From Escherichia coli (GTDB lineage: Bacteria > Pseudomonadota > Gammaproteobacteria > Enterobacterales > Enterobacteriaceae): a stretch of DNA of 64,000 nt. Positions 1,339-3,373 of this stretch are shown here, piece by piece. A program made the translations under genes and the position numbers. Below the pieces are notes generated by a model that was not told where the DNA came from, did no database searches, and saw only the letters and a list, made by a program, of their open reading frames with translations. The stretch lies in the NCBI RefSeq assembly GCF_003991155.1, contig NZ_CP031293.1; one strand, given 5' to 3'. Position 1 is the first letter of the stretch. The number at the start of each line of letters is the position of its first letter.

Positions 1339-1439
1339 TCAGAAACAATTTTCCCAAATTATAGAGACGGGGCTAAAGGCAGAAGTATGAAATTTCGGGT
1401 GAGCCATTTTCGTAGCTCACCCGTTAGCACTATCAGGTA

Positions 1440-1760
1440 TCAGGCGGCTTTCTTGAGGCAGGCGCTCATAAACTTATTACGATCATCCCCTTTCAGAGAT
1501 TGTTGCGTTGCTTGATTATTACATTCGCGCATCTTTTGCTGCTGTGGCGTCAAACTTTTTTCACCAGGCGCAGACTTGCTGTTCTTCAGGCAATCACTCA
1601 TGTAGGTCTTACGAGCATCCCCTTTCAACGCCTGCGCCGTCGCCTGCTGATTACAGGAGGTCATACGCTGTTGTTGCGGGGTTAAGGTTCTCTCGGCAGC
1701 GCCGACGGTGGTTAAAAAAACCAGTCCGAAAAGCAAGGTAACCAGTAATGTTATTTTCAT
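1440..1760 (-). CDS. psiF: Phosphate-starvation-inducible protein PsiF (signal peptide, two internal repeats)
   Basis: ORF-track frame 1440..1778; internal start MKITLLVTLLFGLVFL at 1760 is preceded by AAGAGGGA Shine-Dalgarno; 106 aa; downstream of phoA on same strand. Confidence 0.85.
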   Translation of the reverse strand: MKITLLVTLLFGLVFLTTVGAAERTLTPQQQRMTSCNQQATAQALKGDARKTYMSDCLKNSKSAPGEKSLTPQQQKMRECNNQATQQSLKGDDRNKFMSACLKKAA

Positions 1761-1878
1761 AGCACCATCCCTCTTCATGTTTTAACCATGAGCGTTTGCG
1801 CCCGTGATCTGCCATTAAGTCTGGTTGCTAACAGCAAAAAAACCACCCGACAGCGAAAATTCACCGCCGGGCGCGGTT

Positions 1879-3294
1879 TTATTTCAGCCCCAGGGCGGCT
1901 TTCATGGTGTAGAAGAGATCGGTCTGGTCGGTCAGTCCAACGACATTGGCGGCATGTGGGCCATACGCTGCAATACGCAACTGACTGCCGGTATGTTCTT
2001 GTGAATCCTCTTCGGAGTTCCCGTAACTCATCACCATCACTGCGCCATCTTTGGTATTTAGCGCCTGGGTGAGGCCCGGCGCTTTGGTGTCCGGCGCGAC
2101 AATCTGGCTGGCGTGGGCGTGATCAGCGGTGACTATGACCAGCGTGTTGCCATCCTTTTTAGCGAATTCCAGCGCACGTTGTACGGCTTCATCGAGATCG
2201 ACCGTCTCGCCAATTTGCCCACAAGGATTCGCAGCGTGATCCTGTTTATCGATTGATGCACCTTCAACTTGCAGGAAAAAGCCTTTCTCATTTTTACTCA
2301 ACAATTCAATGGCTTTGTCGGTCATCTGCGCCAGGGTCGGTACGCTGTCATTACGTTGCGGATTAGGTGTACAGGTGACTGCGGACTTATCTATATTACC
2401 GTGGTACGTTGCTTTCGGTCCTTGCCAGCGCACTGGCATATTGCCGTCAGCAAACAGTCCTAATAGGGGTTTTTGCTGATTCGCTTCCGTCACCGCATTT
2501 AGCGAGGCAGCATCGCTCACCAACTGATAACCACGCGCCAGTGCCTGTTCACGCAGCGTTTTTCCCTGCCATTCACCGGCGGTTGCCGTTTCAGCAAAGG
2601 TTTTTGCACCGCCGCCAAGCGTAACATCGGCACGGGCGTTAAGCAGCTGTTCGGTAATCGATCCTTTTCCGCCTTTTTCCAGAGCGTTACCCGGACATTT
2701 TTCACTGGTCGCACTCGGACCGTAGCATTTGCGCGAGGTCACATGCGCCACCAGCGCAGCGGGCGTGGCATCCTGCAACTCTGCGGTAGAAACGTTACCG
2801 GTCGCCAGACCTGCGGCTTTTGCCATTTCCAGAATCGTTGGGTGATCTTTTTCGTGAATATCGACGCCCAGCGCGCCGTTATAGGTTTTGACACCAGTTG
2901 ACCAGGCGGTTGCTGATGCAGCCGAGTCGGTGACGTAGTCCGGTTTGCCGGTTTTTTTATTCAGCGCATAGTGTGTGTATTGTCCGGTAAGCGGTAAGGC
3001 ATCGATACCTTTAAAAAAGCCGCCCGCACCTTCGGCATAATTGCGTGCGGCAGTAATTTCCGAGTCCCCCATCCCATCGCCAATCAGCAAAATAATATTT
3101 TTTGCAGGTTTATCGCTAAGAGAATCACGCAGAGCGGCGGTCTGATCACCCGTTAAGCGGCGAGCACCGCCGGGCGCAGTAATATCGCCCTGAGCAGCCC
3201 GGTTTTCCAGAACAGGCATTTCTGGTGTCCGGGCTTTTGTCACAGGGGAAAACAGTAACGGTAAGAGTGCCAGTGCAATAGTGCTTTGTTTCAC
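1879..3294 (-). CDS. phoA: Alkaline phosphatase
   Basis: 471 aa; GTG start (cac at 3292-3294 on + strand); signal peptide [20 protein letters not shown]; full-length match to PhoA. Confidence 0.97.
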
Positions 3295-3355: not shown

Positions 3356-3373
3356 GTGACAGCTTTATGACAG
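3356..3373 (-). promoter_or_regulatory. Pho box (PhoB binding site) of the phoA promoter
   Basis: Minus strand reads CTGTCATAAAGCTGTCAC, two direct CTGTCA-type half sites, about 60-80 bp upstream of the phoA GTG. Confidence 0.7.

Follow-up and report, generated by a model that had tools for sequence, protein, structure and literature searches.

The psiF gene of Escherichia coli encodes a small protein directly downstream of the alkaline phosphatase gene phoA, and its locus raises the question of how this protein is built and whether its tie to phosphate starvation belongs to its function or to its position. We studied it in a window (the whole stretch of DNA analyzed, 64,000 nucleotides of contig NZ_CP031293.1) whose start corresponds to the E. 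coli proC-adrA(dgcC)-psiF-phoA-iraP region. Translation of the open reading frame (ORF) at 1440..1760 on the minus strand yields the same 106-residue protein that was given in the initial annotation of this stretch, where it was described as two tandem repeats with two cysteines each behind a signal peptide, forming a duplicated, disulfide-stabilized periplasmic module co-expressed with phoA. Its residues 1-106 align with positions 1-106 of the 106 of the NCBIfam equivalog model for PsiF (NF008560), with 234.5 bits against a cut-off of 165. The 601 bases around the gene match, with 100% identity, several E. coli chromosomes in which psiF is annotated between phoA and adrA, and a psiF match was found in 5425 of 5426 complete E. 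coli genomes. The initial observation is correct, its interpretation is essentially right, and the finding is already known: the tandem repeat, the two cysteines and the phoA-psiF operon are covered by Pfam PF07769, NCBIfam NF008560 and the literature on the Pho regulon. The two database entries concern the same protein (E. coli PsiF, b0384), with no difference from ours, and record the repeat without structure, disulfide or function.

The internal repeat of PsiF

When PsiF was aligned with itself, residues 23-59 and 67-103 matched without gaps, with 24 of 37 identical and 29 of 37 similar positions (BLASTP with compositional adjustment, E = 8e-18), confirming that two tandem two-cysteine repeats align residue for residue. 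Each copy carries one cysteine pair (C36/C57 and C80/C101) with its members 21 residues apart, both being C-x20-C; the period of the repeat is 44 residues (E23 to E67), and its conserved core covers around 32-34 residues. The module is indeed duplicated also for the Pfam model PF07769 (PsiF_repeat), which matches two stretches (E = 8.7e-34, 115.5 bits against a gathering cut-off of 21), the best of them placing residues 27-59 on profile positions 2-34 of 34. Many database entries are accordingly titled "PsiF repeat-containing protein".

Mature PsiF is compositionally biased, with 12 Q, 10 A and 10 K in 85 residues, which favors a likeness of the two halves due to chance or to Gln/Lys-rich low complexity. 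This explanation has practically no probability left and was excluded, as the Smith-Waterman score of 131 between the repeats compares with 24.5 ± 5.0 for 5000 composition-preserving shuffles that never went above 61 (z = 21), the BLASTP value is compositionally adjusted, the curated Pfam repeat model fits both halves, and the same invariant columns recur in 325 instances of the repeat taken from 150 diverse proteins. When placed in register, the two copies share 65% of their nucleotides, and their codons match at 30 of 37 first positions and at 15 of 37 third positions. Because the third positions match so much less often than the first ones, the two copies go back to an old duplication that protein-level selection has preserved, and are not a recent DNA repeat. 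No PsiF repeat beyond these two copies was detected by tblastn over the 64-kb window.

Ahead of the first repeat, the PsiF N-terminus has K2, a 16-residue hydrophobic core and VGA|A. By eye and with a hydropathy rule, the segment MKITLLVTLLFGLVFLTTVGA|AE shows n-, h- and c-regions and a V-G-A site typical of Sec substrates. The periplasmic location put forward initially is predicted from this signal peptide, and a hydrophobic stretch also precedes the first repeat in 134 of the 137 family members with a full N-terminus. The protein can be detected in the cell, so that its absence, which the initial annotation had named as grounds for refutation, does not apply: a chromosomal PsiF-3xFLAG fusion is visible in published western blots, in which it goes up in a cpxQ deletion and down upon CpxQ overexpression, and the Pseudomonas fluorescens PsiF has been quantified by proteomics. 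CpxQ being a small RNA of the envelope-stress response, its action on psiF fits an exported product.

At the start of the gene, the block AAGGATGGTGC-ATG is kept across genera. The start region AAGGATGGTGCNATG is conserved in other genera, and the upstream in-frame ATG at 1778, which would give a 112-residue ORF, is not conserved there. The extended form (window 1761-1778, minus strand) is annotated in some records (P0002), and its ATG has no Shine-Dalgarno sequence.

The repeat family and its predicted fold

An exhaustive HMMER search over 1.84 billion representatives (E up to 1e-3), with clustering at 50% identity, gave 1204 clusters of PsiF proteins. Copy numbers and the repeat consensus were obtained with an iterated hidden Markov model of the repeat on the best 150 of them. 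Within this set two repeats are the commonest architecture by far (106 proteins), followed by three (31) and one (11, mostly fragments), and four and five repeats were found in one protein each; the cysteine count per protein is about twice the number of repeats. The consensus reads TPQQxKMKxCNxxAxxKxLKGDxRKxFMSxCL, in which C10, A14, G21, R24 and C31 are conserved in at least 97% of the repeats (99% for Cys at both columns), L32 in 94%, M7 in 91%, N11, F27 and M28 in 87-88%, and L19 in 83%. The spacing C-x20-C occurs in 276 of the 325 repeats, and 39 others have C-x18-C with a loop two residues shorter. None of the 319 complete repeats lacks either cysteine; only six fragments, which are truncated or frameshifted, do, so a correlated loss of cysteines was uninformative as evidence of their pairing.

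The repeats are net positive in 93% of the cases (mean +2.6), and so are 98% of the mature parts; the linkers between them measure 2-33 residues, with a median of 11, and A, K, S, P and G are abundant in them. Repeats 1 and 2 share the same column consensus, and repeats within one protein are more alike (identity 0.60) than repeats from different proteins at any position (0.52); therefore, the copies are equivalent and repeatedly homogenized or re-duplicated. A natural one-repeat variant, P0145 (62 residues), has an E. coli-like signal peptide and 89% identity to the query over the aligned stretches; it seems to have arisen when recombination between the copies removed one repeat in frame. Pfam shows no domain besides PsiF repeats in the long homologues. 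Some homologues (P0206, P0256, P0229 and P0233) end in an extra conserved C-terminal module of around 60 residues that has no Pfam model, CGxDxVVWVNxxSxIYHxxxxxxYGKTKxGxYMCExDA, located after two or three PsiF repeats and a long Ala/Pro/Thr-rich spacer.

The family was found here in beta- and gamma-proteobacteria and in Nitrospira, with the best 80 genomic loci belonging to Comamonadaceae, Rhodoferax, methylotrophs, Thiobacillus, Accumulibacter, Pseudomonas, Paraburkholderia, Budvicia and Nitrospira. The neighborhoods of these loci were surveyed with crudely called and then clustered ORFs, several of the resulting clusters being antisense artefacts of high-GC DNA. The neighbors were lineage-specific housekeeping genes: AmiC, TruA, CysE and IspF in Nitrospira; LysR, EamA, an Hsp70-like protein and an AI-2E transporter in Pseudomonas; argS, a SPOR protein and dsbA in Comamonadaceae. 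In Comamonadaceae/Rhodoferax (for example L031, 845-4066; L011, 3411-4139) the homologue adjoins argS, the SPOR-domain gene and an opposite-strand dsbA-like gene, and the presence of a thiol oxidase gene near a two-cysteine periplasmic protein may be a coincidence.

As for the fold, the AlphaFold2 model of the full-length protein (70-sequence alignment) consists of helices 28-42/47-62 and 72-86/91-104 with a predicted local distance difference test score (pLDDT) above 90, joined by a linker (residues 61-70) with pLDDT of around 59, the overall mean being 81.5. When the repeat was modeled in isolation (residues 23-62, 81-sequence alignment), the pLDDT was 94 and the predicted template modeling score (pTM) 0.67, the helices being 6-20/25-38 and none of the five models falling below 91.8. 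These models support that each repeat is an autonomous helix-turn-helix hairpin in silico, and together with the low-confidence linker and the one to five natural copies they agree with the repeats folding as independent units, as the initial annotation required. We regard this architecture and fold as very likely. A sequence search of the Protein Data Bank with PsiF returned nothing below E = 0.46.

The conserved non-polar residues form a stripe, with M7, C10 and A14 (and L19 at the turn) on the first helix and F27, M28, C31 and L32 on the second. In a register analysis both cysteines lie on this interface stripe, 10.5 residues either side of K46/G47, and a chain reversal at K20/G21 of the consensus would set A14 opposite F27 and C10 opposite C31, which is the geometry of a stapling disulfide. 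An intra-repeat disulfide is thus likely, given the invariance of the cysteines, their number of two per repeat and the predicted oxidizing location, and the disulfide stabilization proposed at the outset is a good reading of a pair kept in 319 of 319 complete repeats, on the interface and equidistant from the turn.

The repeat can be likened to other disulfide-stapled hairpins of oxidizing compartments, such as the CHCH/twin-Cx9C proteins and the small Tim twin-Cx3C proteins of the mitochondrial intermembrane space, or the plant alpha-hairpinins (vicilin-buried peptides, luffin P1, nigellin). Whereas these have paired CxnC motifs and two disulfides per hairpin, the PsiF repeat has one Cys per helix; membership in any of them (CxxxC...CxxxC) was rejected for this reason, as there was also no significant similarity and the structural likeness was weak and generic. 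CpxP, Spy and ZraP, the LTXXQ proteins, are stress-induced proteins of the periplasm, small, basic and folded as all-helical hairpins, traits that PsiF has or is predicted to have, and the E. coli PsiF repeats begin with LTPQQ, which fits LTXXQ (in the family, L is found in 39%, T in 61% and Q in 85-88% at these positions). CpxP and Spy, however, lack cysteines and form dimers of long hairpins, in contrast to the tandem mini-domains of PsiF. The LTXXQ/CpxP Pfam models matched none of 70 PsiF members at E up to 1, and hhalign of the PsiF alignment against a working version of the Spy sequence gave a probability of 0.4%. The relationship was rejected on these negative profile tests, and the likeness of LTPQQ to LTXXQ is most simply a helix N-capping box.

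Among the weaker matches, PsiF residues 5-61 hit the NCBIfam model TIGR04453 (Lepto_8Cys) below threshold (E 2.4e-4, 21.5 bits against a cut-off of 34), and this match may be driven by the signal peptide. TIGR04453, KinB_sensor and Sol_i_2 (12 of 70 members), all of them sub-threshold, were judged to be noise or signal-peptide driven. The Dictyostelium PsiF/DicA1, the Salmonella sifB promoter "psifB" and the pseudogene artefact "Psi-fixN" are unrelated clashes of name in the literature.

Expression of psiF and its link to phoA

Published chromatin immunoprecipitation sequencing (ChIP-seq) and RNA sequencing (RNA-seq) define phoA-psiF as a PhoB-activated operon with a PhoB ChIP-seq site upstream, the two genes showing PhoB-dependent log2 fold changes of 5.4 (psiF) and 7.6 (phoA). 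The Pho box CTGTCATAAAGCTGTCAC that we located (Table 1) belongs to phoA, and none was found directly upstream of psiF. Between the two genes there is a terminator-like hairpin with a predicted fold of -24.7 kcal/mol (z = -4.9), and therefore transcription of psiF from the phoA promoter needs read-through. The published RNA-seq counts in the wild type and in a phoB deletion were around 32,600 and 755 for psiF and around 310,000 and 1,550 for phoA, in such proportions that, per base, psiF has about half of the level of phoA in the induced wild type and about twice that of phoA in the phoB deletion. These counts suggest a read-through of the terminator of around 50% per base.

The pairing of the two genes is a property of some lineages. 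Salmonella and Enterobacter hormaechei, as well as three further enterobacterial lineages (L083, L087-L089, L090-L093), have the order iraP-psiF-(adrA)-proC, with no phoA, and a block of hairpin and T-run also precedes the psiF element in such relatives; one lineage at 58% identity has iraP-phoA-psiF, as in E. coli. Thus, phoA was either inserted or lost between iraP and psiF, and psiF is retained independently of phoA. Further away, phoA was found within 6 kb of none of the 80 loci of distant homologues in beta/gamma-proteobacteria and Nitrospira. Pho-box-like sites were not enriched upstream of the homologues (1 in 26 kb against a background of 0.056 per kb) in a scan that is limited by its E. 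coli-type consensus and its threshold of 11/14. Hence, co-expression with phoA, the last element of the initial proposal, stands for E. coli and is lineage-specific, since psiF is kept where phoA is absent: the E. coli phoA-psiF pair fits the Pho regulon, and the wider PsiF family shows neither linkage to phoA nor an excess of Pho boxes. The Pho connection may follow merely from the position of psiF downstream of phoA.

Downstream of the hairpin, the segment CCAGACTTA is invariant in six of seven enterobacterial loci (including L083, L084, L090, L092 and L093), with or without phoA, amid diverging flanks. It is a candidate -10 element of the sigma-S type, as it fits the sigma-S consensus.

Several published data agree with such an element. 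On its own, psiF is 73-fold RpoS-dependent in E. coli EDL933, and the gene is part of the Crl regulon. For Salmonella SL1344, the published transcription start site (TSS) of psiF puts an RcsB box, TGGGATATTTCCCA, which is a ChIP-seq site, at +7 to +21, and in locus L090 this mapped TSS falls around 8 nt downstream of CCAGACTTA. It is thus probable that psiF has a sigma-S-dependent promoter of its own. The palindrome TGGGATATTTCCCA itself (L090, around 2940-2975, in the Salmonella psiF 5' untranslated region) is absent from the E. coli leader (window around 1790-1810). At the post-transcriptional level, CpxQ targets psiF, with a pairing reported near the Shine-Dalgarno sequence. After the gene, the hairpin ahead of adrA is a probable 3' end or terminator of psiF, and it may act as a partial terminator or as an RNA-stability element.

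Table 1. Coordinates in the window of psiF, its parts and the neighboring elements
Feature	Position	Strand	Description and basis
psiF coding sequence	1440..1760	minus	ATG at 1760; 106 residues and TGA stop; ORF listing and translation
Shine-Dalgarno sequence GAGGGA	1768..1773	minus	7 nt 5' of ATG 1760; sequence reading
Predicted Sec signal peptide MKITLLVTLLFGLVFLTTVGA	1698..1760	minus	Residues 1-21; cleavage after VGA or one residue later
PsiF repeat 1	1584..1694	minus	Residues 23-59, Pfam core 27-59; Pfam, BLASTP self-alignment, AlphaFold
Cysteines of repeat 1	Cys36, 1653-1655; Cys57, 1590-1592	minus	
Linker	1563..1583	minus	Residues 60-66, KNSKSAPG region, low complexity
PsiF repeat 2	1452..1562	minus	Residues 67-103; second Pfam PF07769 stretch, BLASTP, AlphaFold
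Cysteines of repeat 2	Cys80, 1521-1523; Cys101, 1458-1460	minus	
phoA (alkaline phosphatase)	1879..3294	minus	Upstream gene of the reported phoA-psiF operon; ORF and annotation
Pho box CTGTCATAAAGCTGTCAC	3356..3373	minus	Upstream of phoA; pattern search, 1 mismatch to consensus, 0.16 chance matches expected
Terminator-like hairpin	1837..1873	minus	13-bp GC-rich stem and U7, directly after the phoA stop, before psiF; terminator scan
Candidate sigma-S-type -10 CCAGACTTA	1816..1824	minus	C at -13, CAGACT, TAA; predicted TSS near 1810
Hairpin after psiF	1396..1423	minus	17 nt after the psiF stop, ahead of same-strand adrA; -20.1 kcal/mol, z = -4.9; weak U tract

A proposed role and its alternatives

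The explanation that we consider likely is that PsiF is a Sec-exported periplasmic protein made of two equivalent PF07769 hairpins, with multivalent anion binding at times of stress and two routes of expression. After export by Sec, each repeat would fold alone as a helix-turn-helix hairpin with its turn at the invariant K-G-D and the stripe M7, C10, A14 and L19 packed against F27, M28, C31 and L32 as the helix-helix interface. The invariant cysteines would then face each other around 10 residues either side of the turn, and DsbA would most probably oxidize them into one staple per hairpin, because a mini-domain of 32 residues needs a staple for stability. Held on a flexible low-complexity linker, the hairpins would be like beads on a string, one to five of them in the relatives, each copy keeping a basic surface rich in Gln, Lys and Arg. 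As PsiF is too small for catalysis and has no motifs for it, it would act non-enzymatically, through multivalent binding of an anionic, probably repetitive or polymeric, ligand of the envelope or periplasm during stress. In E. coli its expression would come from partial terminator read-through from the PhoB-activated phoA and probably from its own sigma-S-type promoter, and CpxQ would repress its translation.

The equivalence of the copies, their variable number and the conserved basic surface point to multivalent binding of an anionic ligand, and binding at the envelope or in the periplasm during stress would accord with the regulators of psiF, which are PhoB, sigma-S/Crl, CpxQ and, in Salmonella, RcsB. 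Taken separately, this anion-binding role is a tentative proposal. More speculative still is that the PsiF repeat represents a distinct bacterial class of single-disulfide alpha-hairpin, whose tandem basic copies bind a polyanionic envelope component (the phosphates of lipopolysaccharide or phospholipids, polyphosphate or extracellular DNA) within the sigma-S/Rcs/Cpx network rather than in phosphate scavenging. If that were true, the "phosphate-starvation" label of the E. coli gene would be an incidental result of imperfect termination behind phoA, a gene that adjoins psiF in only some enterics.

Several observations weigh against the explanation that we favor. The basic surface could serve solubility instead of ligand binding. 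No gene neighbor common to the lineages was found across the 80 loci, which leaves no functional partner to point at. Only overproduction has given published phenotypes, and these are weak: psiF is in the list of genes conferring H2O2 resistance from the ASKA collection, and its overproduction has been reported to raise persistence and persister waking. Our search of the literature found no deletion-phenotype, localization, disulfide or ligand study of PsiF. With regard to the fold, the pTM of the full-length model is 0.41, so that the two hairpins could pack as one four-helix bundle, and with the loop assigned by DSSP to residues 43-46, C36 and C57 would be offset by around four residues, unless the chain turns back at K46/G47.

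The last points lead to an alternative in which the hairpins are not independent and form either one four-helix bundle or a dimer through exposed hydrophobic residues, perhaps with cysteines joined across repeats or subunits. The low pTM, the predominance of two-copy proteins and the fact that the conserved hydrophobic residues (M7, A14, L19, F27, M28, L32) exceed what a two-helix interface needs would all be accommodated by it, but natural proteins with one, three and five repeats keep exactly two cysteines per repeat, the low-complexity family linkers vary from 2 to 33 residues, and the isolated repeat is modeled with pLDDT 94 against around 59 for the PsiF linker; we find this arrangement improbable. 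A role for the same conserved residues as metal ligands is a very unlikely reading. According to it, the cysteine pairs and conserved methionines would bind, for example, Cu(I) or Zn, and PsiF would be a periplasmic metal buffer, perhaps serving the Zn/Mg enzyme PhoA. The invariance of Cys, the two Met per repeat conserved to around 90%, the position and co-expression of E. coli psiF next to the gene of a zinc enzyme, and the H2O2-resistance screen speak in its favor. Nevertheless, the sequence contains neither CxxC nor a motif rich in His or Met, the conserved methionines and cysteines lie on the predicted buried stripe with A14, F27 and L32, a core pattern and not a site, thiols placed one per helix are expected to be oxidized by DsbA in the periplasm, and the family is kept without phoA in the distant loci, where none of 80 has it within 6 kb, and in Salmonella and Enterobacter, which lack it at this locus.

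The regulation of psiF bears on a further alternative, namely that PsiF is a dedicated accessory of phosphate scavenging that binds phosphate esters, polyphosphate or other phosphorylated polymers in the periplasm and hands them to PhoA or Pst. Induction together with phoA in a PhoB-dependent manner, the presence of a Pho box ahead of the operon, a basic surface that would suit phosphoryl groups and the neighboring iraP, also a phosphate-starvation gene, would be expected from such a function. Against it, linkage to phoA does not extend beyond a subset of enterics, iraP-psiF is kept without phoA in Salmonella, Enterobacter and others, Pho-box-like sites are not enriched upstream of the homologues, psiF is strongly RpoS-dependent in stationary phase, and the P. 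fluorescens homologue was detected in a comparison of the rimK mutant and wild-type proteomes that was not aimed at phosphate starvation. Altogether, we judge a dedicated scavenging function unlikely, and retain the exported protein of two stapled hairpins as the preferred reading.

As a discovery the repeat carries little weight, and its value is modest, concerning a core E. coli gene and a widespread, uncharacterized mini-domain. The autonomous hairpin in one to five equivalent copies, the basic surface, the presence of psiF without phoA and the sigma-S-like -10 behind the terminator suggest a role in envelope or stationary-phase stress and not in phosphate metabolism, with the tie to phosphate starvation being a local feature of some enterics.

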